A stretch of DNA of 39,909 nt from IMG/VR virus record IMGVR_UViG_2706794690_000014. One strand, 5' to 3'. The stretch is from a virus. Lineage: Duplodnaviria > Heunggongvirae > Uroviricota > Caudoviricetes. Shown here in pieces: positions 1-39,390 of this stretch. Below the pieces are notes generated by a model that searched no databases, was not told the origin of the DNA, and was given only the letters and a program-made list of their open reading frames with translations. Position 1 is the stretch's first letter. Every line of letters starts with the position of its first letter. The position numbers and the translations under genes were made by a program.

Positions 1-381
1 ATGCAGAAAAATGTGACTCCCGGCAGGCGAAAAGGCTGCCCTAATTATCCTCCCGAATTTAAACAGCAGCTCGTTGCTGCCTCCTGTGAACCCGGGATAT
101 CCATCTCAAAACTTGCTCTTGAAAATGGCATTAACGCCAATCTGTTGTTCAAATGGCGACAACAATGGCGCGAGGGAAAGCTGCTATTACCTTCTTCAGA
201 GAGCCCCCAGCTACTTCCTGTGACTCTCGATGCAGCTGCCGAACAGCCAGAATCGCTCGCAGAGGACCCGAAAACCCTCAGTATCAGCTGTGAGGTAACG
301 TTCCGGCACGGGACGCTCCGCTTCAATGGCAATGTCAGCGAAAAGCTCCTGACTCTGCTGATACAGGAACTGAAGCGATGA
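1..381 (+). CDS. tnpA: IS66-family accessory protein TnpA (orf1)
   Basis: 126-aa ORF with the size and composition of IS66 orf1; stop overlaps the next ORF start (378-381), as in IS66 operons. Identified from recalled family features, not a search. Confidence 0.7.
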   Translation: MQKNVTPGRRKGCPNYPPEFKQQLVAASCEPGISISKLALENGINANLLFKWRQQWREGKLLLPSSESPQLLPVTLDAAAEQPESLAEDPKTLSISCEVTFRHGTLRFNGNVSEKLLTLLIQELKR

Positions 382-701
382 TCCCGTTACCTTCCGGGAT
401 CAAAATTTGGCTGGTTGCCGGTATCACCGATATGAGAAATGGCTTCAACGGCCTGGCTGCGAAAGTACAGACGGCGCTGAAAGACGATCCCATGTCCGGC
501 CATGTTTTCATTTTCCGGGGCCGCAGCGGCAGTCAGGTTAAACTGCTGTGGTCCACCAGTGACGGACTGTGCCTCCTGACCAAACGGCTGGAGCGTGGGC
601 GCTTCGCCTGGCCGTCAGCCCGTGATGGCAAAGTGTTCCTTACACAGGCGCAGCTGGCGATGCTGCTGGAAGGTATCGACTGGCGACATATAACCAGGTG
701 A
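378..701 (+). CDS. tnpB: IS66-family protein TnpB (orf2)
   Basis: 107-aa ORF coupled to tnpA by ATGA overlap; typical IS66 orf2 size and position. The expected orf3 (tnpC) does not follow; phage DNA starts instead. Confidence 0.75.
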   Translation: MIPLPSGIKIWLVAGITDMRNGFNGLAAKVQTALKDDPMSGHVFIFRGRSGSQVKLLWSTSDGLCLLTKRLERGRFAWPSARDGKVFLTQAQLAMLLEGIDWRHITR

Positions 702-1898: not shown

Positions 1899-3986
1899 AT
1901 GTTTGCTTCAGTTAAAGAACTGGTTGGATTACCGGGGATGCCGGGAACGGAGCAAGGCGTTCGCTATTCAATCAGGAAGTATGCAACCAGCGAAACCAGC
2001 AGACGCCGCAAGAAAGGCGCTAAAGGTTTTGAATACAGCATTGACTGTTTACCTGAAGTGACACAGCAGGCATTACGCGAACGTTATGCCCTGCAACTGA
2101 TGACGCAAAAAGCCGATGAATCACCGGCTCCGGTGGTGACAAAGGCCAGACGCTCGTCTGCCGTGGTTGATGCGGTGGAGGCATATCGCGGATCACCACA
2201 ACTGATGGTCGAACGCCTCAATGCCCTGACTGAAAACCAGCGCCAGGTGGCAGACGCACGCATTGCGATCGTCAGTGAGGTGCTGAAATTCACGCAACAA
2301 CCCGGTTTCAGCTGCGCTAAAGCTATCCGGTTCCTCGTTAACAGCCTGGCACGATCACAACTGGACGAGCGCATTGTGGCAATGGTTGAGACGGCGAACG
2401 CCAAAAAGGGAAACAGCCGCGCGTTGAGTGAAATCACGCTGAAACGCTGGATTGCGGCCTTTAACAAGGCACAGAACGCCGCTGAACGCCTGCTTTTACT
2501 GGCACCGGGTAAACGCCAGGAAATAAAAGCCGAAGATATTAACTGGCTGCCCGAATTTCTGGCGCAGTATCGCCAGTCAAACGGCCGACCAATGACCGAG
2601 GCTTACGAGGATTTTGTTGCTGAATGGCAGCACCGGCACGCTGATGAGCCTTATATGCTCGATATCATGCCCTCTTATGACACCATTCGCCGCGCAATGA
2701 AGAAACTGCCGGAAGTGGTGAAACAAAAAGGCCGGGTAACTGGCAGTGAATACCGTCAGCTTGAGGGATTCACGCGCCGCGACTGGTCCAGAATGCCGGT
2801 GAATTATGTCTGGATTGGTGACGGTCACGGCATGAAGCTGAAATGCGCGCACCCGGTTCACGGGCGGCCATTCGCACCGGAAGTGACCTTTGTTATCGAC
2901 GGTGGCACGCGCTTTGTGGTGGGCTGGAGCCTTGACCTGGCTGAAAATGTTTTCGCCGTAGCCGGTGCCATACAGCACGGTATTCGCCATCATGGCAAAC
3001 CGTTTCTGTATTACTCGGATAATGGCTCCGGGGAAACCGCCGACGTCCTGGATAAGGAGATTGTGGGGATACTGCCACGACTGGGGATTAATCACCCGAC
3101 AGGGATTGCCGGTAATCCGCAGGGACGGGGCATTATCGAACGGCTTAACCGCACATTACCGATGCGCATAGCCCGTAAATACCGCACCTATTTCGGGAAA
3201 GGAGCAGATCGCGAGACGTTACGTAAAACCAACCGCGATTTACGCTCGGCATTCAGTGCCCTGCAACAGGGCAAACGGCTGAACGCCCGGCAGCAGTCAG
3301 CGATGCGTGATTTACCGTCCTGGTCTGAACTGATTGATGCCATTCGTGACGGTGTTGAGTGGTACAACAACCGGCCGCACGATGAATTACCCATGAAGCC
3401 GAACGGTAAACATTACAGCCCGGCGGAGTTCAGAAAAAAACGCCTGGCGGAAGAGGACACGGAAATTGAATGGCTGTCCGATGTTGAACTGCGGGATATG
3501 TTCCGGCCGATGGTGGAGCGCCCTGTAAGACGCTGTGAAATACGCTGGCTGAATAATATTTACTACGCGCCCGAGCTGCGTGACGAGCATGGCCGTAAGG
3601 TACTTATCAGCTATGACATTCATGATGCCGAACGAATTACCGTGCGCCGCCCGGATGGCAGCGTGATTTGCGAGGCGGTATGGGACGGCAATAAACGCGA
3701 AGCCTTCCCTGTCAGCGCGGAATACTACAAACAGCAGCAGCGCCTTAAAGGCATGCGTAAACGCGCAGAGGAAAAAATCCGTGATGCCGAGGATGAGGTT
3801 GTCAACGTGCTGGAGCACAAGCCGCAGGAGCCCTGGCTGGAAAACATATACCGCCCTGTGGGTAATACGGTGACCGTTCAGCAACCGGTCGCTGACGATG
3901 AACCTGATGAAGAATACGAGCGTAATTTCCAGCGGGGATTGCAACTGCTCGAAGCGAAATTAAAAGAAAGTGATCCGCTGGCCTGA
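1899..3986 (+). CDS. DDE transposase, MuA-like
   Basis: 695-aa ORF following ner, with an integrase-core-like region (VWIGDGHGMKL...). Size and position match Mu transposase A. Confidence 0.85.
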   Translation: MFASVKELVGLPGMPGTEQGVRYSIRKYATSETSRRRKKGAKGFEYSIDCLPEVTQQALRERYALQLMTQKADESPAPVVTKARRSSAVVDAVEAYRGSPQLMVERLNALTENQRQVADARIAIVSEVLKFTQQPGFSCAKAIRFLVNSLARSQLDERIVAMVETANAKKGNSRALSEITLKRWIAAFNKAQNAAERLLLLAPGKRQEIKAEDINWLPEFLAQYRQSNGRPMTEAYEDFVAEWQHRHADEPYMLDIMPSYDTIRRAMKKLPEVVKQKGRVTGSEYRQLEGFTRRDWSRMPVNYVWIGDGHGMKLKCAHPVHGRPFAPEVTFVIDGGTRFVVGWSLDLAENVFAVAGAIQHGIRHHGKPFLYYSDNGSGETADVLDKEIVGILPRLGINHPTGIAGNPQGRGIIERLNRTLPMRIARKYRTYFGKGADRETLRKTNRDLRSAFSALQQGKRLNARQQSAMRDLPSWSELIDAIRDGVEWYNNRPHDELPMKPNGKHYSPAEFRKKRLAEEDTEIEWLSDVELRDMFRPMVERPVRRCEIRWLNNIYYAPELRDEHGRKVLISYDIHDAERITVRRPDGSVICEAVWDGNKREAFPVSAEYYKQQQRLKGMRKRAEEKIRDAEDEVVNVLEHKPQEPWLENIYRPVGNTVTVQQPVADDEPDEEYERNFQRGLQLLEAKLKESDPLA

Positions 3987-9677: not shown

Positions 9678-10190
9678 ATGAATCGCGCTTCCCTGATTAC
9701 CTTAATACATGTCGCAAAACGCGATCTACAGCTTGACCATGATACCTATACATCCGCGCTGCTGGCAGCCACCGGCAAATCCAGTTGCCGTGATATGTCA
9801 CCCGGTGAGTTATCCCGCGTGCTGGATGTTTTCAAAAAACGCGGTTTTAAAGTGCGTCAGAAGCCGGTTAACCGGGCCTTAAAACCGGGTACGGTGACCG
9901 CCAAAATTCGCGCCATCTGGAAAGTGATGCACCGGCAGGGATTTATCTCTGATGGCGGGGAAACGGCCCTTAACCGCTGGGTGAAATCGCAGACGGCCGC
10001 GCAGAACGACGGCGAAGGTGTGGCTAACTGGCAGTGGCTGGAGCAACAACCCGCGCTGGCCTCTGATGTGCTGGAGCGTCTCAAACGCTGGCACCGCCGC
10101 AAAATGCTGGCAGCCCTGGATATGTCGGAACGTGCAGTGATGAGTTATGAGCGTGTTTGCAGGCTGTATGAAAAATCATTCCCCCGTTAA
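9678..10190 (+). CDS. gemA: GemA-like regulatory protein (Mu gp16 family)
   Basis: 170-aa ORF with a LI.LIHVAKR..L.LD..TY N-terminus and RAIW motif typical of Mu gp16; located immediately before the Mor/C gene. Confidence 0.7.
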   Translation: MNRASLITLIHVAKRDLQLDHDTYTSALLAATGKSSCRDMSPGELSRVLDVFKKRGFKVRQKPVNRALKPGTVTAKIRAIWKVMHRQGFISDGGETALNRWVKSQTAAQNDGEGVANWQWLEQQPALASDVLERLKRWHRRKMLAALDMSERAVMSYERVCRLYEKSFPR

Positions 10191-10194
10191 CCCC

Positions 10195-10225
10195 AAATCC
10201 CGCCACAGCGCGGGATTTTTATTTT
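10195..10225 (+). terminator. Rho-independent terminator
   Basis: 9-bp stem aaatcccgc/gcgggattt with a 6-nt loop, followed by ttattttt; directly after the gemA stop. Confidence 0.6.
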
Positions 10226-10260
10226 AAACTTGCCCTGTGTAATGATGACCGGAGGCGGGT

Positions 10261-10683
10261 ATGGCTGAAACACAGATGAGCATGTTTGGTGACAGCGAAC
10301 AGCTGCACGCGCTGATTGACCGTCTGGATGATATTCCTGATGATGAGCTGAAAAAGAACTGGCCCGGCACGCTGCGGGACCTGGTTGATGTGATCAGTGC
10401 TGAACTGCACCGTCAGGGGATTGAACCTGCTCAGGCGGGAATGCTTGCCCGTAAGGTTGCAGCCGCACAGGCCGGGTACATGGGCGGGCGTGGTTATTAT
10501 CTCCCGGTCGGTGAATCCCTTTTCACCGAACTGCGCAATAATGAAATTTTTTCCCGCTGGAGCCAGGGCGAAAAAATTGAAACCCTGCGCCGCCACTACC
10601 AGATGTCAGAGACGCAGATTTACTCCGTTATCCGCAACCAGCGTCGCCTGCATCAGGAACGCACGCAGCCACGGCTTTTCTGA
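10261..10683 (+). CDS. Mor/C-family late transcription activator
   Basis: 140 aa with a C-terminal HTH (MSETQIYSVIRNQRR); sits between gemA and the lysis genes as Mor/C do in Mu. Cannot tell Mor from C. Confidence 0.7.
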   Translation: MAETQMSMFGDSEQLHALIDRLDDIPDDELKKNWPGTLRDLVDVISAELHRQGIEPAQAGMLARKVAAAQAGYMGGRGYYLPVGESLFTELRNNEIFSRWSQGEKIETLRRHYQMSETQIYSVIRNQRRLHQERTQPRLF

Positions 10684-10754
10684 TATTCCGCAAATCCTGC
10701 CCCCTTTTCCTCACGGTTACGCTGACTCAGAGAACACCATGAGACAGCGTAACA

Positions 10755-11255
10755 ATGCCAAAACTCCCCGCACCCCTGCGTAAAAAGCTGATTGCCCTTG
10801 TTCTGGCCGGAGCCGGGACGTTCACCATTGCCACGCACTACACCGGCTACTGGGAAGGGAAAGAAAACACCACGTACATTGATCCCACCGGCACCCCCAC
10901 CATCTGTTACGGCCATACCGGCCCGGATGTGAAACCGGGGATGACAAAAACTGATGAAGAGTGTCTGGAGCTGCTGGAAAAGGACATGAAATGGGCCTTT
11001 GCGGCTATCGATCGTCATGTTCAGGTGCCGCTTACCCGTGGTCAGACGGTGGCGCTGGCCTCCTGGATTTTCTGGGCCGGTGAAACGAACTTTCGCAACT
11101 CCACGCTCCTGCGCCTTATCAATGCCGGGCAGATGCCCGCGTCCTGTAAGCAGTATATCCGCTGGATTTATTCAAAGGGGGTAAAACTCCCCGGTCTTGA
11201 GGCCCGCCGTTCGGCGGATGAATGGTTATGTCGTTACGATTTGCCGAAAGTCTGA
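10755..11255 (+). CDS. lys: Endolysin (phage lysozyme) with N-terminal SAR-type signal anchor
   Basis: Catalytic E-x8-D-x5-T pattern (WEGKENTTYIDPTGTPTICYGHT); weakly hydrophobic Gly/Ala-rich N-terminus (LIALVLAGAGTFTIATHY). Confidence 0.8.
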   Translation: MPKLPAPLRKKLIALVLAGAGTFTIATHYTGYWEGKENTTYIDPTGTPTICYGHTGPDVKPGMTKTDEECLELLEKDMKWAFAAIDRHVQVPLTRGQTVALASWIFWAGETNFRNSTLLRLINAGQMPASCKQYIRWIYSKGVKLPGLEARRSADEWLCRYDLPKV

Positions 11256-11328
11256 ACCGCTTCTGGCGACCGCTCATGATTGCGCTGCTGTGTGCCGTTG
11301 TGCTGCTGCGGGGTGTGCTGTGTCTGCG

Positions 11329-11718
11329 GTGAACAATCCCTTACCGGCCCTGATTGCCGGAGGCTGTATGGCGGCGCTGGGGGTGATGAGCGTGCTGGCT
11401 GCCGTGGTATGGGGAATGCACCAGAAGACGCAGCGCCTTGAGGACAATAATCATGTGCTTGTGCGTGAACGGGACGAAGCCCGTCTGGTGCTGGCAAACC
11501 AGCAACGCACCCTGCAACTCATTTCACAAATCAGCAAGGCGGCCACGAATGAAAAACAGCAGAACATGCAGCACAGCGAGGAACAGCAGAGCATTGTCCG
11601 CCGGTCACTGGCAACGGTGCCTGCTGCCGCTGTGCCTGTGCCTGATGATGTGGCTGACCGGGTGCGGCGGGCCGTCTGTGAAATACGTGCCGGTGAAGCC
11701 GGTGCCGATCCCCGCTGA
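11329..11718 (+). CDS. Putative i-spanin (Rz-like)
   Basis: N-terminal TM segment (LPALIAGGCMAALGVMSVLAAVVW) followed by a charged, coiled-coil-like region. Start uncertain (GTG 11329, ATG ~11369, or ATG 11197). Confidence 0.55.
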   Translation: MNNPLPALIAGGCMAALGVMSVLAAVVWGMHQKTQRLEDNNHVLVRERDEARLVLANQQRTLQLISQISKAATNEKQQNMQHSEEQQSIVRRSLATVPAAAVPVPDDVADRVRRAVCEIRAGEAGADPR

Positions 11719-11920
11719 ATGGCTGGCTGACTGCCTGGTCCCTCCCGCGCCGCAGCCGTTCACGTTTGGTGCATCGGTCACTTACAACCTGCAACTGCTG
11801 GCGGTGATTAAAAACTGCAACGTGGACAAGGCCAGCATCCGCCGTCTGGAGACACAGCGACAGCATGAATTTACTGATATGGCCGGAACGACTGCTGTTC
11901 CGGCAGGAAAGACGAAGTAA
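11549..11920 (+). CDS. Putative o-spanin (Rz1-like lipoprotein), overlapping the i-spanin in another frame
   Basis: Lipobox-like LTGC followed by a Pro-rich mature region (PVKPVPIPAEW...PPAPQP); begins inside the i-spanin and extends past it. Start uncertain. Confidence 0.5.
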   Translation: MKNSRTCSTARNSRALSAGHWQRCLLPLCLCLMMWLTGCGGPSVKYVPVKPVPIPAEWLADCLVPPAPQPFTFGASVTYNLQLLAVIKNCNVDKASIRRLETQRQHEFTDMAGTTAVPAGKTK

Positions 11921-11930
11921 GGAAAAAGGT

Positions 11931-12158
11931 ATGGATGATTCAGATTGTGCTCAGGCAGTCATGGAGCGTGCAACAGAACGCGCCCTTTGTGACCGGCTGA
12001 CACGTAAGCGCCGGGTGGCGGAGACACCGGGCAGGCGTGTATGCGCGGACTGCGGGGGTGACATTCCGGCTGCCCGTCTGGTTGCCGTGCCGGATGCCAT
12101 CCGTTGTGTGAACTGCCAGAACATCATGGAGGCCGGTCATGTGGGTCAGCATCGTTAA
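11931..12158 (+). CDS. TraR/DksA-family C4 zinc-finger protein
   Basis: CADCGGDIP...CVNC C4 motif in a ~75-aa protein, as in phage/plasmid TraR-like proteins; ATG at 11931. Confidence 0.6.
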   Translation: MDDSDCAQAVMERATERALCDRLTRKRRVAETPGRRVCADCGGDIPAARLVAVPDAIRCVNCQNIMEAGHVGQHR

Positions 12159-12450
12159 AGATTATGTCGTGCCGATCCTGTCGGCAACGGCCACAGCCGG
12201 GGGGATCTTCATGGCGCTGATGCGCAAAACCTTTGTCCCCCGCGAGGCCTTTGAAAAACTCTCCGACCGGGTTGAGCGGGTGGAGAGCCGGATTTCCGGC
12301 CTGCCCACGCAGCAGGAGGTGAACAGACTCAATATCGAAATCACCACCCTGCGCGGTGAGCTTAAGGCCACCAATGCCACCCTGAAATCCGTCTCCCATC
12401 AGAACGAACTGCTGCTGGAGCAGGCTGTAAGGAAAAAACACAATGAGTGA
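12139..12450 (+). CDS. Small membrane protein (TM plus coiled coil); possible lysis accessory
   Basis: N-terminal hydrophobic segment (VVPILSATATAGGIFMALM) followed by a coiled-coil-like region; located between the lysis and packaging genes. Confidence 0.45.
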   Translation: MWVSIVKDYVVPILSATATAGGIFMALMRKTFVPREAFEKLSDRVERVESRISGLPTQQEVNRLNIEITTLRGELKATNATLKSVSHQNELLLEQAVRKKHNE

Positions 12451-12733
12451 TTTCATTACTGAAGATCAGCGTCTTGTCATTCTGCGGTCGCTGGCGGATT
12501 ACAACGGCGAACTGGGCGAATCCGTGCTTCAGGACTGCCTGGATGATTACGGTCACCGCGTGTCCCGCGACACCGTTCATACCCACATTGCCTGGCTTGC
12601 CGAGCAGGGACTGGTGCGTAAGCGCACGCTTGTTAACGGTTATTTCATCGCTGAACTGACCGGCCGGGGTCAGGATGTGGCGGAAGGCCGCGCCACCGTT
12701 CCGGGTGTGAAGAAACCACGCGCAAGGGGGTAA
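12443..12733 (+). CDS. Hypothetical late protein
   Basis: 96-aa ORF coupled to its neighbours; no recognisable domain. Confidence 0.4.
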   Translation: MSDFITEDQRLVILRSLADYNGELGESVLQDCLDDYGHRVSRDTVHTHIAWLAEQGLVRKRTLVNGYFIAELTGRGQDVAEGRATVPGVKKPRARG

Positions 12734-12735
12734 CG

Positions 12736-13317
12736 ATGGATAAGCCAGCGCGTGGCCGTGTACGCAAGGTGGATTTGCTCCCCGACAGCATCCGTAAGCC
12801 GCTGCTGGAAATGCTGCGTGAAAAACGTCTGACGCAGGTCCAGATCCGCGAGGAAATCAACCGTCTGATCCGTGAAGCAGGTCTGCCGGAAGAGCAGCAG
12901 CTCTCACCGGCGGCCATCAGCCGGGAAGCCTCCCGTAATGAGCTGATTGCCCGTAATCTGCGTGATTTACGCGAGCAGACAAAAGCCATGATGGCCGAAC
13001 TGGGGGATAAGCCGACCGGTGAAACCACGGCACTGATTCTGGAGATGTCCCGTGCCCTGATGTACCGCCGTCTGCGTGCCGCCACCGAATCCCTGAACAG
13101 CGACAGCGATGTGGATATGCGCCTTATTAAGGACATCCTCCTGTCGGCACAGCGTGCAGAAAGTGCCGCCGAGCGCAGCATTAAGCGTGAAAAAGAAATC
13201 CGGGCCGCATTTGCTGAAGAGATGGCGAATGCGGTCACCGATGAGTTGCGCGGCGTGGATGGCATGAGCGAGCAGATCGAATTCCGTATCAGGCAGATGC
13301 TGCTGGGTAAGGCGTAG
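12736..13317 (+). CDS. Putative terminase small subunit / DNA-binding protein (Mu gp27-like)
   Basis: 193-aa charged helical protein two genes upstream of the large terminase, as in Mu. Confidence 0.5.
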   Translation: MDKPARGRVRKVDLLPDSIRKPLLEMLREKRLTQVQIREEINRLIREAGLPEEQQLSPAAISREASRNELIARNLRDLREQTKAMMAELGDKPTGETTALILEMSRALMYRRLRAATESLNSDSDVDMRLIKDILLSAQRAESAAERSIKREKEIRAAFAEEMANAVTDELRGVDGMSEQIEFRIRQMLLGKA

Positions 13318-13327
13318 GAGGTGAATC

Positions 13328-13576
13328 ATGGCAACAGATAACCGCTCACTGATGAGCAGTGCCCATCAGAAAGCATTCAGTCTTGCAACACAGTTACCTC
13401 CTGAAACCATAAAGGTATGTCGTGAGTTGACTGAACTCAGCATTGCCGGGGAAATATCCCTGGAACAACTGCATTCGCTGCTGGCAGAGGCTGCCACTGA
13501 TGAGTTGAGCGGCGTGGACGTGATGACTGAAGAGCTTGAGTCCCGAATCAAAAGCATTCTGACAGGTAAAGCATGA
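13328..13576 (+). CDS. Small protein paralogous to the C-terminus of the preceding gene
   Basis: C-terminal ~25 aa (DELSGVDVMTEELESRIKSILTGKA) parallel the upstream protein's C-terminus (DELRGVDGMSEQIEFRIRQMLLGKA); DNA is also similar. Confidence 0.45.
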   Translation: MATDNRSLMSSAHQKAFSLATQLPPETIKVCRELTELSIAGEISLEQLHSLLAEAATDELSGVDVMTEELESRIKSILTGKA

Positions 13577-15240
13577 TGAACAAAGCCAGAGAAACGTCGC
13601 CTTCACTGATGCAAATGACGCCTCCCCGCAAAATTGATCTGTCAGGTGAAAAAGCCCTGCTGGGCGTGGATGTGCCGGACAGCCTTGATTTGCCCGGTGA
13701 TATGCCGGTGTTTCTGGATTATCAGGCCCGCTGGTTTGCAGATGAAAGTCAGGTCTGCATCGCGGAGAAATCCCGCCGCACCGGTCTTACCTGGGCGGAA
13801 GCCGGGCGTAACGTCATTACTGCTGCAAAACCGAAGCGTCGTGGTGGCCGCAATGTGTTTTATGTGGGATCAAAGCAGGAGATGGCGCTGGAATATATTT
13901 CTGCCTGCGCGCTGTTCTCCCGTGCCTTTAACCAGCTGGCAGATGCTGATGTGTATGAGCAGACATTCTGGGATCGGGATAAAAAAGAAGAAATTTTGAC
14001 CTACATGATCCGCTTTCCGAACAGTGGATTCAAAATTCAGGCATTGTCTTCCCGTCCGTCAAACCTGCGCGGCCTTCAGGGGGATGTGGTGATTGATGAA
14101 GCCGCGTTCCACGAGTCACTGGATGAGCTTCTCAAGGCGGCAATGGCGCTCACTATGTGGGGCGCGCGCGTGCGTATTATCTCCACGCATAACGGCGTCG
14201 ATAATCTGTTTAATCAGTACATTCAGGAAGCCCGCGAGGGGCGCAAGGATTACAGCGTCCACCGCATAACCCTGGATGATGCCATTGCGGACGGGCTGTA
14301 CCGTCGTATCTGTTACGTCACCGATCAGGAATGGTCACCGGAAAGCGAGCAGAAATGGCGTGATGATCTCTACAAAAACGCCCCGACCCGTGAGGATGCC
14401 GACGAGGAATACGGCTGTATCCCGAAAAAATCCGGCGGTGCCTATATCCCCCACGCGCTTATTGAAATGGCGATGATCCGCGACATCCCGATTCTGACGT
14501 TTGAAGCCCCGGACAACTTCATCAGCCGTGCCGCATGGCTGCGTGAATCGGAAGTTTTAACCTGGTGTGAAGAACATTTAAAACCGCTTTTAGAGAAATT
14601 AAATCCCCGTTCCCGCTTCAGCTTCGGGGAAGACTTTGCCCGCACCGGTGACCTGTCCTGCTTTGTGCTGCTGGAAATCACCGAATCCCTGGCAAAGCGC
14701 GAGGTGTTTCGCGTGGAGCTGCGCAACCTGCCGTATGCCCAGCAGGAACAGGTGATGATGTACATCCTGACCCGCGTTCCGGCGCTGGTCGGTGCGGCGT
14801 TCGACGCCACCGGTAACGGCGGCTATCTGGCAGAGGCCGCACTGCTGGCCTTTGGCCCGGACATCATCGACTGCGTGATGTTGTCGCCGAAGTGGTACGG
14901 CGAGTGGATGCCAAAACTGAAAGCCGAGTTTGAAGATCAGAATATCCTCGTCGCCCGCCATCAGACCACGCTTGATGATTTGCGCCATGTGAAGGTAGTG
15001 AATGGTATCCCGCAAATCGACAAGGGGCGCACGAAGGACCAGAACGCAACGGCTGCGAACGCCCGCCGCCATGGTGATTTTGCCGTGGCGCTCTGTATGG
15101 CAAACCGGGCGTCATACATGGAGGGCTTCATCCTGGATGAATCAGCCTGTCAGGCGCTACAGGAGCGGTCGCGGGCAATGGAGGGCGGTTATCGTGATGA
15201 CGATGAGGCATATCATGAATTTGATCGGGGGGGCTGGTAG
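13573..15240 (+). CDS. Terminase large subunit (Mu gp28-like)
   Basis: 555-aa ORF directly upstream of the portal; size, position and ATPase/nuclease-like composition fit TerL. Confidence 0.8.
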   Translation: MMNKARETSPSLMQMTPPRKIDLSGEKALLGVDVPDSLDLPGDMPVFLDYQARWFADESQVCIAEKSRRTGLTWAEAGRNVITAAKPKRRGGRNVFYVGSKQEMALEYISACALFSRAFNQLADADVYEQTFWDRDKKEEILTYMIRFPNSGFKIQALSSRPSNLRGLQGDVVIDEAAFHESLDELLKAAMALTMWGARVRIISTHNGVDNLFNQYIQEAREGRKDYSVHRITLDDAIADGLYRRICYVTDQEWSPESEQKWRDDLYKNAPTREDADEEYGCIPKKSGGAYIPHALIEMAMIRDIPILTFEAPDNFISRAAWLRESEVLTWCEEHLKPLLEKLNPRSRFSFGEDFARTGDLSCFVLLEITESLAKREVFRVELRNLPYAQQEQVMMYILTRVPALVGAAFDATGNGGYLAEAALLAFGPDIIDCVMLSPKWYGEWMPKLKAEFEDQNILVARHQTTLDDLRHVKVVNGIPQIDKGRTKDQNATAANARRHGDFAVALCMANRASYMEGFILDESACQALQERSRAMEGGYRDDDEAYHEFDRGGW

Positions 15241-25152: not shown

Positions 25153-27249
25153 ATGGCAAAAAACCTGAAAGCCTCCCTGATTGTCGATTTACTCGGCAAT
25201 ATTTCTGCCAAATCCCGCCAGTGGTCACAGGAGCTGGGGGCATTCTCCCGTTCCGGCAGGACGGGGCTGGGTGGTCTTGGAAATGCAGCACGTCGTGCCG
25301 GTCAGGAGACAGAACTTGTCGGCTCCCGTATGCAGCGAACGCTTGCCGGTGTTCGTGGCAGTATCCGCACGGTGACGTCAGATTTTGACCGCCTTCAGGG
25401 CAGCATTNNNNNNNNNNNNNNNNNNNNNNNNNNNNNNNNNNNNNNNNNNNNNNNNNNNNNNNNNNNNNNNNNNNNNNNNNNNNNNNNNNNNNNNNNNNNN
25501 NNNNNNNNNNNNNNNNNNNNNNNNNNNNNNNNNNNNNNNNNNNNNNNNNNNNNNNNNNNNNNNNNNNNNNNNNNNNNNNNNNNNNNNNNNNNNNNNNNNN
25601 NNNNNNNNNNNNNNNNNNNNNNNNNNNNNNNNNNNNNNNNNNNNNNNNNNNNNNNNNNNNNNNNNNNNNNNNNNNNNNNNNNNNNNNGCGGGTTCGGTAT
25701 GAGTGACAGGGAAGCCCGTCGCTTTATTACCATGCTTCAGGATCAGGGCGGCTATCACGGCTGGTCACTGTCAGATGCACAGGGTGCGTCCCTGCAACTC
25801 AAACAGATGTTTGCCCGCCAGAGTATCCAGGCAGCGGACGCCAATATTCTGACCGGATACGGGATTAACGTTTACCAGTTGCTGGCCGATAAGCTGGGTG
25901 TAAACCAGAAGATCATCCGTGAGAAAGGCGAGAAAGGAAAACTGGGACCGGACAGCATTCGCCTGTTATTTCAGGTGATGGCCGAACAGGCAAAAGGTGC
26001 CCAGAAAAACGCCATGAATTCCTGGACGGGAATGACGTCCATGATGGGCGATGTCTGGGACGGATTTGCCCGCGAGGTGATGGCAAAGGGACCGTTTGAC
26101 AGCCTGAAAAAGAGCCTGAAAGGCTTTCTGGATTATGCTGATGCGGCACAGAAAAGCGGCTTACAGGATAAGCTGGCCACACAGACGGCCTCAGCCCTGA
26201 ATCAGGGATTTGAGTATGCCAGAGACGCTGCGACCGGCTTTTACCGGGTCATTCAGAAAGTCAGGGAAACGCTTCAGGCACTGCGCGACGCCGGTTATGG
26301 CGATGCGCTGGATCGCATTGGTCAGGGTGCGCAGACCGCCGCAAAGTACCTGATGTATATGTATCTCGCCTCCCGTGCGCTGAAGGTGCTCAGGTTTGCG
26401 GGGACGGGGGCATTACGTCTCGGCGCAACCCCCTTACGCTATGGCATGGCGATGACCTCCGTGCTGACGTCGCCCTTCCGCAAACCGCAGACCACTGTAC
26501 CGGGAACGCAGCCCGGACGCGCTGGCCGGTTCCTGAATTTCCTTACCGGGGTAAATCCGGCTGCCGTTCAGCCCGTGCTGGTCACCAATTGGCCTGCGGG
26601 TGGCCTGGCCTCAGGTGGCGGGGATGTGGTGGTCAGCGGTGACGGCAAAACCGTGCGCGGCCGTAAAAAACGCGGCCCCGGACGTGGACGGGGTGTCACG
26701 ACCGTCGTGACTGCCGGTGAGCAACTGGCGGAGAGTGCCGGTAAACAGGGCTTCTTCGGTCGTATGATGAGCCGTGCCGGTGGTCTGCTAACGGCGGCCG
26801 GAAACCGCATGGGGCTGGGGCGTTTTGCCGGGCTGTTCCGTGGTGCCGGTCGGCTGGGTGGTGGTGCCCTGTGGGCCGGTGCCATGGCGGCTCCTGTACT
26901 GCTGGACAGCAGCGCCAGTGCAGCCGATAAAGCCGGTGCCGTGGGTTCCCTTGCCGGAAGTATCGCCGGTGGCGCGCTGGGGGCGGCTGCCGGTCCGGTC
27001 GGGGTTGCCATTGGTTCCACGGTGGGCAGCTATCTCGGTGATTATCTGGGGGGCTGGCTGACGCAGGCCTGGCAGAAACTGCGTGGCGGCAGTGACGAAA
27101 ACGGCGGACAGGCCACCGCGAAAACCGCCGCACGGGTGGAGCTTGTTGCCCCTGAAGGCTGGCGGGCGCGCAGTATTGATGTGGATGATACCGCACAGCA
27201 TGGCCTGGATGTGAACGTCTGGAACGGAGGGAACTATGGCCTCTACTGA
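25153..27249 (+). CDS. Tail tape measure protein (interrupted by an assembly gap)
   Basis: 698-codon ORF after the chaperone; Gly/Ala-rich C-terminal region. Contains 280 N at 25408-25687. Confidence 0.75.
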   Translation: MAKNLKASLIVDLLGNISAKSRQWSQELGAFSRSGRTGLGGLGNAARRAGQETELVGSRMQRTLAGVRGSIRTVTSDFDRLQGSIXXXXXXXXXXXXXXXXXXXXXXXXXXXXXXXXXXXXXXXXXXXXXXXXXXXXXXXXXXXXXXXXXXXXXXXXXXXXXXXXXXXXXXXXXXXXXXGFGMSDREARRFITMLQDQGGYHGWSLSDAQGASLQLKQMFARQSIQAADANILTGYGINVYQLLADKLGVNQKIIREKGEKGKLGPDSIRLLFQVMAEQAKGAQKNAMNSWTGMTSMMGDVWDGFAREVMAKGPFDSLKKSLKGFLDYADAAQKSGLQDKLATQTASALNQGFEYARDAATGFYRVIQKVRETLQALRDAGYGDALDRIGQGAQTAAKYLMYMYLASRALKVLRFAGTGALRLGATPLRYGMAMTSVLTSPFRKPQTTVPGTQPGRAGRFLNFLTGVNPAAVQPVLVTNWPAGGLASGGGDVVVSGDGKTVRGRKKRGPGRGRGVTTVVTAGEQLAESAGKQGFFGRMMSRAGGLLTAAGNRMGLGRFAGLFRGAGRLGGGALWAGAMAAPVLLDSSASAADKAGAVGSLAGSIAGGALGAAAGPVGVAIGSTVGSYLGDYLGGWLTQAWQKLRGGSDENGGQATAKTAARVELVAPEGWRARSIDVDDTAQHGLDVNVWNGGNYGLY
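25408..25687. other. Assembly gap (280 N)
   Basis: Uninterrupted run of n characters. Confidence 0.99.
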
Positions 27250-32369: not shown

Positions 32370-33250
32370 TGTTTCATGTTGATAATAATTCCGGCGTGGC
32401 GAATATGCCTGCGCTGGCACCGGCGCAGAGTAATACCACCACCTGGTTTACCGAAGGTGACGGACAAAAAGGTATCAGCTGGATTGGTCAGGACTGGCTG
32501 AATATTCTCCAGGCCGAACTGCTGAATATTCTGGCTGAAGCCAGTATTCAGCCGGATAAGGCGCAGTTAAACCAGCTTACGCTGTCCATTAAAGCCATTA
32601 TCGCTGCGAATGCCTTTTCCCGGAAAAATAACCTGAAAGAAATTGCTGATGCCGGTGCGGAGGCCCAGCGTCTGGCCCGTGGTTATCTTGGTCTGGGGAC
32701 GCTTGCCACAAAAAACAGTCTTGGTCCCGCTGACGTTAATGCCCTGGCGAAGGATCAGAATCTCGCCGACCTGGAGAATAAGGGAACCGCCCGTAATAAT
32801 CTGGATGTTTACAGCAAAAGCGAAGGTGATAACCGTTACCTGCGCAGGGAGCAGAACGGCGCAGACATTCCGGATAAAGGGGCTTTTATCGATAACGTCG
32901 GTTTACGGGAAACGGTAAACAGGGCGGCGAATGCCCTGCCATCGGACGGCACCGCCGTTGCCGCGAACAGGCTGGCAAATGCCCACACAATTAATGGTGT
33001 TCCCTTTGACGGGACGCAGGATATCACTATCTCATCAGGAACAGTAACCGCCATAAGACTGGGGTCGGTGACCGCACATATGCCCGGAACATGGGAAAGC
33101 TGGGATCTGAATCTGGGGGGCGGCAATGTTCTTACCGGAATTAAAGTACAGGATGTCGGTAAGAATACGGCAGATAACGTCGGCGGCGTGTATTACCGGC
33201 CGTTGCAGTATCTGTTAAATGGAGCATGGGTGACGGCTGCAAGTATATAA
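32369..33250 (+). CDS. Tail fiber protein (constant N-terminal part plus invertible variable C-terminal part)
   Basis: 293-aa ORF; a gix-like site lies in-frame at codons FIDNVGLRE (32886-32911), so everything 3' of 32899 is inside the invertible segment. Confidence 0.8.
32886..32911. repeat. gix-like recombination site, left
   Basis: ttatcgataacg-tc-ggtttacgggaa: two 12-bp half-sites around a 2-bp core; the right half is the exact reverse complement of the left half of the right site. Confidence 0.7.
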
Positions 33251-33259
33251 TGATATTCA

Positions 33260-33277
33260 GAAGGCCTTCCGGCCTTC
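33260..33277. terminator. Bidirectional terminator-like hairpin between convergent genes
   Basis: gaaggcc-ttcc-ggccttc followed by tttatta, between the tail fiber stop (33250) and the minus-strand assembly gene stop (33282). Confidence 0.5.
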
Positions 33278-33281
33278 TTTA

Positions 33282-33803
33282 TTACTGTGGCTGCTCAGGC
33301 CATTTAATGGCGTTAAATTCAGCTTCTGTTTTAATGGCGGGTAGTTCCATTTTCTTCACCTGACTGATGTATGCCATCCATTGGGTAAGTGCTGCTCTGT
33401 CTTCATCGCTGATGGTGCCCAGTTGTAGCTCCGTTCTCCAGTCATTAATTTTTTCATATGCCTGATTAAGATATGACTGGCGCATTGCTTCCAGTTTTCT
33501 TGCGTAGTTAACCGGAATACGGGAGATTATGCCATTATCAAACTTCCAGTTTCCTGAAATATCCGTGCCTTCAGGGAGTTCATCGACCTCAACCACAGAA
33601 AACCCCGCAGGATACAGCGCCGAGGCGTCCTGTGATATTGAGCAGATAACGCCGCTGTCAGGTGTTATGCAAAGTTTATATTTTTTGGTGAATAATGGCA
33701 GGGATTCGTAGAAATCCTTACCATCTTCACTCTGGAAATACTGAACATTATTACCATATGGCATATTTTCAGGATAATAACGGGTTATATTTTTTAGTTC
33801 CAT
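33282..33803 (-). CDS. Tail fiber assembly protein (U'-like)
   Basis: 173-aa minus-strand ORF inside the invertible segment, directly downstream of the silent alternative fiber cassette. Confidence 0.7.
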   Translation of the reverse strand: MELKNITRYYPENMPYGNNVQYFQSEDGKDFYESLPLFTKKYKLCITPDSGVICSISQDASALYPAGFSVVEVDELPEGTDISGNWKFDNGIISRIPVNYARKLEAMRQSYLNQAYEKINDWRTELQLGTISDEDRAALTQWMAYISQVKKMELPAIKTEAEFNAIKWPEQPQ

Positions 33804-33854
33804 AAAATCCTCCTGGAAATAAATCTGTTTTAAAATATATTATTTACTGACTAT

Positions 33855-34215
33855 TTATAACTGAGATACCGTAATCCATGTACCTCCGACTAATTTTTGC
33901 AGGGGTCTGAATGCTATAAAATCGTTTGAAGCATCAACTTTACTGTCAATCTGCAGGCCTGCCATAACATTACCGTACGCAGAGTAATATGCCCCACCGT
34001 ACATTACCTGCCTGTTCTCTGCTCCCAGCCTGATATCCTGGATATATCGGGAATCCGCATCCTGCTGTGTTATACCAGAAGTGATGTTTATGTCCTGCGT
34101 CCCGTCAAAGGGAACCCCATTAATATTTCTTGGGGTGGCGAGTCTATTCGCGGCAACGGCGGTGCCGTCCGATGGCAGAGCATTCGCCGCCCTGTTTACC
34201 GTTTCCCGTAAACCG
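33855..34215 (-). CDS. Silent alternative tail-fiber C-terminal cassette (S'v-like, no start codon)
   Basis: Minus-strand frame open from the right gix site to a TAA at 33855-33857 (~119 codons). Its first ~40 codons mirror the tail fiber ([23 protein letters not shown]...GVPFDGTQD), then diverge. Confidence 0.55.
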
Positions 34216-34228
34216 AGGTTTTCAGGAA
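34203..34228. repeat. gix-like recombination site, right
   Basis: ttcccgtaaacc-ga-ggttttcaggaa, closely matching the recalled Gin/Hin-family crossover consensus; 66 bp upstream of gin. Confidence 0.7.
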
Positions 34229-34293: not shown

Positions 34294-34866
34294 ATGCTGA
34301 TTGGGTATATCAGGGTGTCAACAAATGACCAGAATACGGCGCTACAAAGAAATGCGCTGGAATGTGCAGGATGTGAGCTGTTTTTCGAAGACAGAATAAG
34401 CGGTAAGACAAGGGAGCGTCCCGGACTTAAACGCGCATTAAAGCGACTCCGGCCAGGGGATACCCTGCTGGTCTGGAAACTGGATCGCCTTGGACGCAGT
34501 ATGCAGCACCTTGTCCTTTTAACAGAAGAACTCCGGCAACGCGGCGTTAACTTCCGCAGCATTACGGACAATATTGATACATCCACTCCCATGGGACGTT
34601 TCTTTTTCCATATAATGGGCGCGCTGGCGGAAATGGAGCGGGAACTCATTATTGAACGTACACGCGCGGGTCTTGCTGCTGCCCGTGCTCAGGGGCGTCA
34701 TGGCGGCAGACCTCAGAAACTGACAGAGAAAGAGCGGGAGCAAATCGCCCGTTTGCTGGCTAATGGCGAGTCCCGTAAACAAATCGCACTGATATTTGAT
34801 ATTGGCCTTTCCACCCTTTATCGTTATTTTCCTGCCTCACCAGCTCCGTCACCAAAAGTACCGTGA
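34294..34866 (+). CDS. gin: Serine DNA invertase (Gin/Hin/Pin family)
   Basis: N-terminal catalytic region MLIGYIRVSTNDQ and C-terminal HTH (GESRKQIALIFDIGLSTLYRYF), both typical of serine invertases. Confidence 0.9.
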   Translation: MLIGYIRVSTNDQNTALQRNALECAGCELFFEDRISGKTRERPGLKRALKRLRPGDTLLVWKLDRLGRSMQHLVLLTEELRQRGVNFRSITDNIDTSTPMGRFFFHIMGALAEMERELIIERTRAGLAAARAQGRHGGRPQKLTEKEREQIARLLANGESRKQIALIFDIGLSTLYRYFPASPAPSPKVP

Positions 34867-34951: not shown

Positions 34952-37006
34952 ATGTCAGACTCCAAGTGGAAAATGCTCTCCGCCATGCCCGGAGAGTTTT
35001 CAGTCAAGGTTGCCGGTGGCACGGTGGCATTTATTGAAAGCCCTTTCCGCCCTTCGGGTAATAAAGGGGGGATCACCTTCGCAGACTGCGTGATCCGCTT
35101 CAGCACGAAAGAGCCATTATGGGTAATGCCGGTATCCGGTAATCCCAGTGCAGAAATCACCAGTTCAGGCGTGACTGGCATCATTCCAATCACATCTGAC
35201 GTGGCCGGAACGCTCACGCCCTCCGACTGGAATGCACCGGATAACGCCGGGCCTTCCGGTAGCACGAATGGCAGCAGTTCAGAGCCGGAATATTACTTTG
35301 TTGTCATTCTCGCGGGTCAGTCAAATGGCATGGCCTACGGCGAGGGGCTGCCGTTACCGGATTCGTTTGACCGCCCGGACCCACGCATTAAGCAACTGGC
35401 ACGCCGCAGTACGGTAACGCCCAACGGTACGTCGTGTACATACAACGACATCATTCCGGCAGACCACTGCCTGCATGATGTTCAGGATATGAGCGGGATA
35501 AACCACCCGAAAGCTGATCTGGCAAAAGGCCAGTACGGGACTGTCGGTCAGGGGTTGCATATTGCCAAAAAACTGCTTCCCTATATCCCACAGAATGCCG
35601 GGATACTTCTGGTGCCCTGTTGTCGTGGCGGGTCAGCATTCACCACTGGAGCCGACGGCTCATTCAGTGAGGCCAGCGGTGCTTCCGCTGATTCTTCACG
35701 CTGGGGGGCCGGTAAACCTCTGTATCAGGACCTGGTAAGCCGCACCAAAGTCGCGCTGGCGAAAAACCCGAAAAACAAACTTCTGGCTGTGGTCTGGATG
35801 CAGGGAGAGGCAGACCTTGCCTCAGGAAGCCAGCAGCATAATAGTTTATTCACGGCCATGGTTCAGCAGTTCAGAACTGACCTGGCTCCGCTTGCTGCGC
35901 AGTGCGTGAGTGGAAATGCCACCACGGTGCCGTGGATTTGCGGTGATACCACGTATTACTGGAAAAACGCTGGCACCGATAAATATGAGGCAGTATACGG
36001 TGGCTACAAAGGCAAGGAAGCACAGAAAATTTTCTTTGTACCGTTCCTGACGGATGAGAATGGACAGAGCACGCCAACGAATGCTCCGGCGGAAGACCCG
36101 GATATTGTGGCTGTCGGGTATTACGGTGCAGCATCCCGAACCCAGGGCAGTTTTGTTTCGACACAGCGTGACAGCCATTTCAGCTCATGGGCACGCAGGG
36201 GCGTCATTTCAGACCGTCTGGCCTCAGCTATTATGCTCCATGCAGGGCGCACGGCTGAACTGATGCGTGGGCAGACCGTGACACCACCGGATGAGAAGCC
36301 GTCACCTGATACACCATCAAAACCGTCCACGCCACCCGCAGACACCACGACGATGAGTACGCTATTTGCTTACCGGGCATCTGAGTCTGAAGGACGGTTG
36401 ACACCACAGGGTTGGGCTGCCGGAGGTGGCAAGGCTCAAATCGTGGATGATGCCGGAGCCAGCGGGGGTAAGGCAATGAAACTGACCAAGGAAACAGGAA
36501 GAGCCCCCTGGTACCTTGAGCATGATGCTGGTAATGGTGCGGACCTGCTGGGTAAAGGTGGTCTTGTCAGTTGTCGTTTTAAACTCGATGGCGCGCTTAC
36601 GGCTAATCAGTACGCACTGGCGCTGTACTGGCCGGTTTCTGCCCTGCCGCAAGGGGTTACTCTGGAAGGAAATGCCGGTCATAACCTGCTGGCATCGTTC
36701 TACGTACAGAGCGATGCCACAGACCTTAACGTGATGTATCACAAAGGAAACACGGCGCAGAACACGAAGCTGGGGTCATTCGGCGCATTTAATAACGAAT
36801 GGCATACGCTGGGCTTCCGTTTTGCCGGTAACAACAGTATTGAGGTGACGCCGGTCATTGATGGTAAGGACGGGACACCATTCATGCTGTCGCAGTCTCC
36901 GGTCGGCACGTTTACGGCAGACAAGTTGCGCGTGACCGATATCACTAAAAATGCGACTTACCCGGTACTGATTGACAGTATCGTGGTGGAAGTGAATAAC
37001 GCGTAA
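34952..37006 (+). CDS. nanS-p: SGNH/SASA-type esterase, prophage NanS-p-like (putative sialate O-acetylesterase)
   Basis: 684-aa ORF with the catalytic-serine motif ILAGQSNGMAYGEG; large C-terminal region typical of prophage esterases. Not a Mu core gene. Confidence 0.6.
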   Translation: MSDSKWKMLSAMPGEFSVKVAGGTVAFIESPFRPSGNKGGITFADCVIRFSTKEPLWVMPVSGNPSAEITSSGVTGIIPITSDVAGTLTPSDWNAPDNAGPSGSTNGSSSEPEYYFVVILAGQSNGMAYGEGLPLPDSFDRPDPRIKQLARRSTVTPNGTSCTYNDIIPADHCLHDVQDMSGINHPKADLAKGQYGTVGQGLHIAKKLLPYIPQNAGILLVPCCRGGSAFTTGADGSFSEASGASADSSRWGAGKPLYQDLVSRTKVALAKNPKNKLLAVVWMQGEADLASGSQQHNSLFTAMVQQFRTDLAPLAAQCVSGNATTVPWICGDTTYYWKNAGTDKYEAVYGGYKGKEAQKIFFVPFLTDENGQSTPTNAPAEDPDIVAVGYYGAASRTQGSFVSTQRDSHFSSWARRGVISDRLASAIMLHAGRTAELMRGQTVTPPDEKPSPDTPSKPSTPPADTTTMSTLFAYRASESEGRLTPQGWAAGGGKAQIVDDAGASGGKAMKLTKETGRAPWYLEHDAGNGADLLGKGGLVSCRFKLDGALTANQYALALYWPVSALPQGVTLEGNAGHNLLASFYVQSDATDLNVMYHKGNTAQNTKLGSFGAFNNEWHTLGFRFAGNNSIEVTPVIDGKDGTPFMLSQSPVGTFTADKLRVTDITKNATYPVLIDSIVVEVNNA

Positions 37007-37021
37007 GCAGGATAAAAAAAT

Positions 37022-37055
37022 GCCGCCGGTAAGGGAAAACAAGAAACCGGCGGCA
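37022..37055 (-). terminator. Terminator-like hairpin, U-tract on the minus-strand side
   Basis: 10-bp stem tgccgccggt/accggcggca with a 15-nt loop; A7 upstream and A5 downstream on the plus strand, so the T-run follows the stem only when read on the minus strand. Confidence 0.4.
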
Positions 37056-37150
37056 AAAAGATCGTTATATCCAAAGCAAAAAATGCAGTGCACCTTTTTA
37101 CCTAACAGATATTACCGGTGTCAACACCATGTCAATAATTGGGAGGGATA

Positions 37151-37333
37151 ATGACATTTTTACAGCTTATTTTATTGTATTTCTGCACGGCAGTATGTGC
37201 GTTATATCTGGTGAGTGGTGGTTATAAGGCCATCAGAAATTATGTTCGCCGCAAAATTGAGGACGCAGCAGCTGAAAAACTCAGTAAAACAGCGCAGGTA
37301 ACTCCGCTCCCAAAAGACCCGACCCAGCCCTGA
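37151..37333 (+). CDS. Small membrane protein (60 aa, single N-terminal TM)
   Basis: GGGAGGG RBS then ATG at 37151; hydrophobic N-terminus (FLQLILLYFCTAVCALYLV) and basic cytoplasmic tail. Confidence 0.45.
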   Translation: MTFLQLILLYFCTAVCALYLVSGGYKAIRNYVRRKIEDAAAEKLSKTAQVTPLPKDPTQP

Positions 37334-37348
37334 TTGCAGGGCTTTATT
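37326..37348 (+). terminator. Terminator-like hairpin
   Basis: agccctg-attg-cagggct followed by ttatt; overlaps the stop of the small membrane protein gene. Confidence 0.4.
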
Positions 37349-37368
37349 CCCGCATAAGGAGGATATAC

Positions 37369-37623
37369 ATGCCAGAAATTAAAGGCACCGTCACTGAAGA
37401 CCTGGTAAAACAGGCACTGTATTCCGGTGAAGTAAATAAGTTGCTGAAAGCGCAGGTCCGCAAGGATTTTGAGGCACAAATCGACACTTACGTTGATGAA
37501 GTGCTGGCAAAACTTATTGGGCCAGCAGTTGCGGCCAGTGATGCTGATAATGAGCCGAAAACCGACGCGCAGCCAGAGCAACCAGACCCGGCTCAGCCCG
37601 GAACTGACAGTACCATGATGTAA
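37369..37623 (+). CDS. Small acidic hypothetical protein (84 aa)
   Basis: Strong RBS TAAGGAGG 7 nt upstream of the ATG; helical N-terminal half, acidic Pro-rich C-terminus. Confidence 0.5.
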   Translation: MPEIKGTVTEDLVKQALYSGEVNKLLKAQVRKDFEAQIDTYVDEVLAKLIGPAVAASDADNEPKTDAQPEQPDPAQPGTDSTMM

Positions 37624-39277: not shown

Positions 39278-39346
39278 AGTATCAAATAAGTTGCGTATCG
39301 GCGTTTTTCAGCGGTATCAAATGAAATGCAAATCGGTATCAAAAAA
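39278..39346. repeat. Right-end cluster of putative transposase-binding repeats (attR)
   Basis: Three inverted copies of the left-end motif: agtatcaaataag (39278-39290), cggtatcaaatga (39312-39324), cggtatcaaaaaa (39334-39346). Confidence 0.6.
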
Positions 39347-39390
39347 ATCGCCGCGCTATAGACAGCCTAAGCGGCTGCTGACCTCCCTGA

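Follow-up and report, generated by a model that had tools for sequence, protein, structure and literature searches.

A Mu-like prophage lysis cassette with a SAR-type endolysin, overlapping spanins and a releasin homologue

We analysed a 39,909-nucleotide stretch of DNA (IMG/VR virus record IMGVR_UViG_2706794690_000014), referred to below as the window, which by its gene content holds a Mu-like transposable prophage of Escherichia coli/Shigella. The cassette at positions 10755–12450 encodes, all on the + strand, a lysozyme of the signal-anchor-release (SAR) type, an inner-membrane spanin (i-spanin) with an overlapping outer-membrane spanin (o-spanin), a zinc-finger protein and a DUF2730 protein, and we consider it highly probable that it is a lysis module working like the holin-less system of phage Mu. 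The latter comprises the SAR endolysin gp22, the spanins gp23 and gp23.1, gp24 and the releasin gp25 (Chamblee et al. 2022, mBio, PMC9239132; AF083977), and Mu lyses without a holin (PMC9239132). The comparisons presented here bear directly on gene identity, order, architecture and conservation and on the lack of a recognisable holin; the dependence of the lysozyme on the DUF2730 protein and its independence of a holin are carried over from Mu by homology.

The lysis cassette and its counterpart in Mu

The gene order in the window, namely lys, the i- and o-spanin genes, the zinc-finger gene, the DUF2730 gene and then gp26, gp27 and terminase, is that of Mu genes 22-23-23.1-24-25-26-27-28. As in Mu, the late operon opens with the cassette, which closely follows the gene for a C-type activator, and the two systems have in common a GH24 SAR endolysin with a dibasic motif ahead of its anchor, overlapped spanins with an identical LTGC lipobox, a small zinc-finger-type protein and no holin. 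The cassette genes abut or overlap each other, and a scan of window positions 10200–13700 revealed neither a sigma-70-like promoter past the activator gene nor a terminator on the + strand, which fits a single activator-dependent late operon opening with lys. The region between the activator gene and lys (10686–10735, limits approximate, + strand) contains a putative C/Mor-dependent late promoter, the equivalent of P_lys, as judged by a ACCGCAAATCC-like block and a -10-like block (GTTACGCT/TTAGACT) that align with Mu and Mu-like relatives; in Mu, a C-activated late promoter is annotated at the equivalent place (AF083977). When the window was searched for more copies of the putative activator-site motif, the sole copy was that upstream of lys.

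The first gene, lys (10755–11255), encodes a GH24 lysozyme of 166 amino acids that is homologous to Mu gp22 and to R of phage 21. Profile searches assigned it to PF00959 (Phage_lysozyme, E 1e-36) and phrog_7 (endolysin, E 1.2e-51), and its sequence shows the catalytic triad E34-X8-D43-X5-T49 (codons 10854–10856, 10881–10883 and 10899–10901, respectively). The N-terminus consists of MPKLPAPLRKK followed by LIALVLAGAGTFTIATHY, so that a basic cluster, R9-K10-K11, immediately precedes a weakly hydrophobic segment, L12-Y29 (RKK-LIALVLAGAGTFTIATHY, 10779–10841, + strand). The best 18-residue Kyte-Doolittle (KD) mean of this segment is 1.51, with Gly, Ala, Ser or Thr at 9 of 18 positions, compared to 1.31 and 10 of 18 for the experimentally proven SAR domain of Mu gp22 by the same measure. 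The enzyme is 39% identical to gp22 in an alignment over residues 1–155. The closest solved structure is that of the SAR endolysin R21 of phage 21 (PDB 3HDE/3HDF), and the match to 3HDE (E 2.9e-25) starts at residue 5 and hence includes the anchor region. These results support a SAR-type endolysin, a class assigned here from sequence and homology, with membrane tethering and release attributed by homology. The motif R9-K10-K11-L12 (LRKKL) is unchanged across E. coli-type and Citrobacter-type relatives, and RKK-L aligns with K6-K7-L8 of Mu gp22, in which the positive charges of K6 and K7 just ahead of the anchor make release dependent on gp25 (PMC9239132). Phage 21 differs in that its pinholin S21 68 depolarises the membrane and thereby frees the enzyme, whereas profile searches revealed no pinholin-like gene in the window.

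The i-spanin gene (11320–11718; start GTG 11320, with ATG 11368 as an alternative) encodes an Rz-like homologue of Mu gp23 (24% identity, E 9e-7) with an N-terminal transmembrane domain (TMD; KD 2.11). It matched phrog_214 'Rz-like spanin' with an E value of 1.5e-29; its matches were to Rz-like families of PHROGs only, and no Pfam family was matched. GTG 11320 is the i-spanin start chosen by the NCBI Prokaryotic Genome Annotation Pipeline (PGAP) in a 99.6%-identical E. coli genome and aligns with the ATG start in Citrobacter-type relatives; ATG 11368 has the strongest Shine-Dalgarno sequence (GGAGG, -9.5 kcal/mol). The o-spanin gene (11549–11920 from ATG 11549, with TTG 11594 as an alternative start) begins within the i-spanin gene in another frame, overlaps it by 170 nt (125 nt from TTG 11594) and runs 202 nt past its end. 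Its product is an Rz1/LysC-like lipoprotein and a homologue of Mu gp23.1 (44% identity), matching PF23793 (LysC, E 2.9e-17) and phrog_3001 (E 8e-41). It carries the same L-T-G-C lipobox as Mu, with the Cys codon at 11663–11665 and Gly (no Asp) at position +2, and the mature protein has 85 residues, 10 of which are Pro. These features support a two-component spanin of the overlapped architecture, as in Mu. The arrangement also resembles LysB/LysC of P2, in that the o-spanin gene, in another frame, begins within that of the i-spanin and outruns it, and its product matches the LysC profile; however, P2 is another type of phage, and the i-spanin of the window fits PHROG Rz-like families only.

The spanin genes are annotated differently in related genomes. 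Five RefSeq relatives were inspected. In four of them, the PGAP model 'Rz1-like lysis system protein LysC' begins at a GTG equivalent to 11678 (for example, L003 2173–2415 and L004 2172–2414), and in the fifth (L006) still further downstream. All these models begin past the lipobox Cys, so that they omit both the signal peptide and the site of lipidation; if the other copies are annotated likewise, many cassette-bearing E. coli genomes (see below) would share this truncation. In O157 relatives, the i-spanin is called 'endopeptidase' and given an N-terminal extension (L004 1784–2212; about 11290–11319 in the window). This extension overlaps the small conserved open reading frame (ORF) described in the next section and is probably not coding, as its frame has a dN/dS of 2–3 and permutation p values of 0.22–0.92 (test described below).

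The gp24 position is occupied by a gene for a TraR/DksA-type C4 zinc-finger protein (11931–12158, + strand), which matched PF01258 (E 8e-12), TIGR02419 (E 2.4e-19) and phrog_54. Its similarity to Mu gp24 is weak and confined to the zinc-finger region, and it differs from gp24 in being a clear member of the TraR/DksA family. A Citrobacter-type relative (L034) contains an additional 138-residue ORF (3548–3964) between the o-spanin and TraR/DksA genes, indicating that the cassette tolerates insertions at this junction.

The last gene of the cassette (12139–12450) encodes a membrane-tethered DUF2730 protein of 103 amino acids, homologous to Mu gp25. It matched PF10805 with an E value of 1.2e-22 over the full length of the profile (residues 6–97 on profile positions 3–101 of 102) and phrog_736 with an E value of 2.6e-32. 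Compared directly with gp25, it is 33% identical over 94 residues (E 1.2e-18), a similarity that puts it with type I of the releasins rather than types II and III, and tblastn matched it to the Mu coding sequence annotated 'releasin' (AF083977). Gp25 is the founder of the releasins: gp22, the SAR endolysin, depends on it for release, and gp25 is not a holin; the traits given for its family are an N-out/C-in TMD, an RR or RK junction, a gene at most five genes downstream of that of the endolysin, and occurrence in transposable phages (PMC9239132). The product of 12139–12450 has all of these: a single N-terminal hydrophobic segment (residues 9–28) followed by an R29-K30 junction, a predicted single-pass N-out/C-in topology, and a gene located four annotated genes downstream of lys in a Mu-like phage. 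An AlphaFold2 (AF2) single-sequence model (pLDDT 74.5) has helices at residues 2–28, 35–53 and 58–102, which suggests a fold consisting of a transmembrane helix and a helical hairpin. A Foldseek search of this model against the PDB gave no match at E ≤0.001, and thus nothing that pointed to an enzyme fold.

When all ORFs and a greedy gene set were scanned for hydropathy, a TMD or lipoprotein signal turned up in only six credible prophage proteins, namely the lysozyme, the product of the small ORF, the i-spanin, the o-spanin, the DUF2730 protein and a DUF1378 protein (64 amino acids, single TMD, 37139–37333). Searches of Pfam, PHROGs and NCBIfam matched none of the six to a holin family, even at E values up to 1 for the cassette proteins. 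In Mu, an earlier proposal that the middle-operon membrane proteins gp19 and gp20 act as holin and antiholin has been disproved (PMC9239132). By analogy with Mu, lysis would also proceed here without a holin. A first-pass annotation, made from the letters of this DNA alone, had described an endolysin with a signal-anchor-like N-terminus, an i-spanin overlapped and exceeded by an o-spanin lipoprotein frame, no canonical holin, and the membrane protein of 12139–12450 as the likeliest lysis accessory. Our results bear this description out: TMD or SAR segments and the lipobox were located in these ORFs, homology to gp22 and 3HDE spans the anchor, the spanin and holin profile searches agreed with it, and the accessory proved to belong to the family of the Mu releasin.

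On this basis we propose the following course of lysis. The single Mor/C-family activator (10261–10683) would switch on the late operon that starts with lys. The lysozyme would be exported by Sec and remain inactive, its weakly hydrophobic SAR segment anchoring it in the inner membrane and R9-K10-K11 on the cytoplasmic side holding it there. The DUF2730 protein, with its N-out/C-in topology and nearly all of its helical domain in the cytoplasm, would accumulate from the same transcript and promote exit of the SAR segment, upon which the freed lysozyme would refold and degrade the peptidoglycan. The i-/o-spanin complex bridging both membranes would then fuse or disrupt the outer membrane. Timing would thus be set by the build-up of endolysin and releasin, and not by depolarisation of the membrane.

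Of 5426 complete E. coli genomes, 231 carry the cassette intact and at 88–99.6% nucleotide identity, many of these being O157:H7, and it occurs also in Shigella, in Citrobacter and in Mu-like insertions inside Shiga toxin (Stx) phages; a scan of genome contigs with the lysozyme gave a single locus, in Citrobacter braakii. The O157 strain Sakai has one Mu-like prophage, Sp18, which is predicted to be intact (PMC2669165), and we infer that the O157 matches, a 90%-identical Mu-like prophage, are Sp18. The arrangement is the published Mu paradigm and ordinary for this group of phages, and the cassette is a divergent member of it. It is also common in nature, and it offers a comparison case for how a releasin works. 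It also raises three annotation points, concerning LysC models that start past the lipobox Cys, i-spanin extensions that lack a coding signature, and the omission of the small ORF.

The small hydrophobic ORF between lys and the i-spanin gene

The only cassette element without precedent is a small ORF at 11222–11332 (+ strand) with 36 codons, or 34 if counted from ATG 11228, whose product is a predicted single-pass membrane peptide, MVMSLRFAESLNRFWRPLMIALLCAVVLLRGVLCLR. Its 5' end overlaps the end of lys, and its TGA stop (11330–11332) overlaps the start region of the i-spanin gene. No other ORF of the window is as hydrophobic (KD 2.68–2.74), and the layout of the product is a charged N-terminus followed by a C-terminal TMD. 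The first-pass annotation had pointed to a hydrophobic ORF of 18 codons here, from ATG 11276 to 11332. The hydrophobic ORF is real, but the shorter length is not favoured: a W-R-P motif on the 5' side of ATG 11276 is preserved through synonymous changes, which argues for 34–36 codons. From its pattern of substitutions we think that the ORF is, on balance, a real small gene that is extra to this lineage.

The comparison drew on E. coli genomes, one C. braakii genome and IMG/VR viral contigs for relatives of the small ORF, and on a metagenome scan for loci near Mu. Among the relatives, 21 distinct versions of the 111-nt sequence were obtained, and in all of them the ORF is open, of equal length and closed by the same TGA. 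These versions fall into two clades that differ at 13–20 of 69–72 sites, and the substitutions are mostly synonymous or conservative in the frame of the small ORF only. Over the 23 codons outside the lys overlap, dN/dS by the Nei-Gojobori method was 0.12–0.80 in its own frame, compared to 0.6–3.3 in the other two. In a permutation test, the observed substitutions were re-placed at random sites and the resulting translations scored with BLOSUM62; the small-ORF frame gave p values of 0.0002–0.04 in 9 of 11 pairs and of 0.17 and 0.27 in the other two, the pairs not being independent of one another. A cruder count of amino-acid changes was significant for some pairs only, with p values of 0.15–0.36 in several. 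The metagenome scan returned relatives of at least 98% or at most 51% identity and none between, and therefore no new level of divergence for the small ORF. Neither Klebsiella phage Kp4866-3 nor locus L043 was informative on the small ORF, the lysis genes of both being unrelated.

The main alternative is that the small ORF is not a gene, and that the stretch of 77 nt from lys to the i-spanin gene is kept as a region for translation initiation or coupling, the open frame being a by-product of GC-rich sequence. We rate this somewhat below an even chance. The ORF is short and its Shine-Dalgarno sequence modest (-5.0 kcal/mol), an invariant CGGGG block inside it may act as the Shine-Dalgarno sequence for GTG 11320, and the non-significant pairs in both tests are what this alternative would lead one to expect. 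The ORF is also unannotated in all five RefSeq relatives inspected; an exact peptide look-up found gene calls to be sporadic, with a few assemblies of Shigella sonnei listing it as 'Uncharacterised protein'. Against this stand the identical length and stop in 21 of 21 versions across the two clades and the restriction of conservative change to a single frame. RNA structure was considered as the cause of conservation at the lys/i-spanin junction and rejected, since the folding energy lies at the mean of shuffled sequences (z -0.32), and a search of the junction against Rfam gave only sub-threshold chance matches.

If the small ORF is indeed a gene, its product could be a lineage-specific fifth component of the holin-less cassette: a single-pass micro-protein that modulates SAR exit together with or against the releasin, or one that provides a minimal membrane-perturbing activity that Mu lacks. 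We regard such a role as speculative and rather unlikely. Should a function in lysis be borne out, holin-less lysis would gain a further component; failing that, nothing about the locus is out of the ordinary. Searches of PHROGs, NCBIfam and Pfam matched the peptide to no protein family. In its charged N-terminus and C-terminal TMD it is like Mu gp20 (39 amino acids, annotated N-in/C-out), but gp20 is the product of a middle gene without a lysis phenotype (PMC9239132) and has no detectable sequence similarity to it. The possibilities that the ORF is a duplicated i-spanin anchor or a relative of Mu gp20 or gp23 are unsupported, since the local alignment scores did not exceed those of composition-preserving shuffles (p 0.11–0.54).

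Beyond the 21 versions, one contig (L032, IMGVR_UViG_2526164665_000023) shows an indel of 1 nt close to the end of lys that joins the lysozyme frame to the small ORF (about 2501–3079). The fused product has 192 amino acids and ends in ...AVLLLRGVLWLR; the fusion may be natural or may stem from a sequencing error.

Release of the endolysin and the holin question

Several observations weigh against a direct transfer of the Mu mechanism to this cassette. The identity of the lysis proteins to those of Mu is only 24–44%, the evidence consists of sequence comparison, and the topologies were called from hydropathy and the positive-inside rule only. The small ORF is absent from Mu and from Mu-near relatives, in which the start of the i-spanin gene overlaps the end of lys, and having this extra membrane ORF between the two genes, the system may not be a simple copy of that of Mu. 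Moreover, the SAR segment contains 2 Gly, whereas that of Mu gp22 is unusually rich in Gly and has a Gly run (PMC9239132); a Gly-poor segment might leave the membrane more readily unaided. The cytoplasmic domain of the DUF2730 protein has a net charge of +3 (14 Lys/Arg, 11 Asp/Glu), whereas that of Mu gp25 is described as predominantly anionic (PMC9239132) and is -2 by our own count, so that a mechanism of electrostatic neutralisation would not transfer directly from Mu. Finally, DUF2730 proteins are also encoded beside non-SAR endolysins in other Mu-like phages (PMC9239132), so that the family may have a wider role than SAR release, or another one. It is chiefly through the net positive domain and the Gly-poor anchor that the cassette could behave differently from that of Mu. 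The same two traits, the second combined with a retained dibasic motif, bear directly on the published models.

In a second alternative, the lysozyme releases itself spontaneously on accumulation, as SAR endolysins do, the DUF2730 protein has another job, for example in packaging or morphogenesis, and lysis takes no more than the endolysin and the spanins. We judge this improbable. It would accommodate the position of the DUF2730 gene, which adjoins gp26, gp27 and terminase, the pairing of DUF2730 proteins with non-SAR endolysins in several Mu-like phages, the non-anionic cytoplasmic domain, the plain helical hairpin without a structural match in the AF2 model, and a SAR segment that lacks the Gly run suggested to hinder spontaneous release in Mu (PMC9239132). 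However, the dibasic motif behind the gp25 dependence of gp22 is conserved here, the DUF2730 protein is of the same type as gp25 as judged by the pairwise comparison, and it is paired with the same type of endolysin (GH24 SAR) that has been shown to be dependent. In addition, gp25 aided release of unrelated SAR endolysins as well (PMC9239132). A releasin-like role for the DUF2730 protein remains our preferred reading.

Slightly less probable still is that an unrecognised holin, pinholin or depolarising factor exists, either the 34–36-residue product of 11222–11332 or the DUF1378 protein: the former is the most hydrophobic of the window, lies between lys and the spanin genes and shows protein-level constraint, and the latter comes from a cargo module that also encodes an esterase and a DUF826 protein, but neither matched a holin profile, and the DUF1378 gene is about 25 kb away. 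To our knowledge, no holin is a single-TMD protein of 34–36 amino acids. Mu, with a homologous cassette, moreover lyses holin-free and without the small ORF. A short membrane protein of this kind is nevertheless required for lysis in Shewanella phage LambdaSo, where Lcc6, with 65 amino acids and a single TMD, acts with a pinholin (bioRxiv 10.1101/2024.01.23.576932). Both the small-ORF product, as a predicted short peptide with one membrane pass that is encoded within or close to a lysis cassette, and the DUF1378 protein, in its layout, resemble Lcc6, in both cases by description only.

Wider gene context of the prophage

GemA and a Mor-family activator are among the hallmarks of Mu-like phages (PMC9239132), and profile searches found both in the prophage (GemA, 9678–10190, PF06252; a single Mor/C-family activator, PF08765), together with a homologue of Mu gp27 (12736–13317, PF11985), Gam (PF07352), a Gp11-type protein (Gp11_C, PF25754) and, close to the right end, Mom (PF25680) and a Gin-type invertase. 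Homologues of Mu gp18, gp19 and gp20 and a second activator were searched for in the prophage and not found. GemA is followed directly by the Mor/C activator and then by lys (9678–10755), the middle operon of Mu being absent. This difference from Mu suggests a two-tier rather than a three-tier transcription cascade.

Surrounding the prophage is an IS66-family element (window 1–701 and 39451–39909), with orfA and orfB (HTH_Tnp_1, TnpB_IS66) at the left and the 3' part of an IS66 DDE transposase gene at the right, and imperfect terminal inverted repeats are found at 689–716 and 39333–39360. A run of about 270 N (25408 to about 25680) lies inside a long ORF, 25153–27249, presumed to be the tape-measure gene, and the intactness of the whole prophage can therefore not be judged from the window.

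Further to the right, inverted repeats of 86 nt (93% complementary) bound a segment of about 1.2 kb at 32891–34223, which carries a tail-fibre assembly gene on the - strand and adjoins the Gin-type resolvase gene (34294–34866). This segment looks like a G-segment-like invertible host-range switch. It is followed by the cargo module (34952–37623), located between the Gin-type invertase gene and mom, to which nothing in Mu is comparable and which encodes a 684-residue SASA-type carbohydrate esterase with DUF6645, the DUF1378 protein and the DUF826 protein. Modules of this DUF1378/DUF826/esterase type sit beside the holin gene in Stx and lambdoid phages.

Two long ORFs on the - strand, of 110 amino acids (12124–12456) and 206 amino acids (12645–13265), run antisense to the DUF2730 and gp27 genes, respectively, and are probably artefacts of a GC-rich coding strand.

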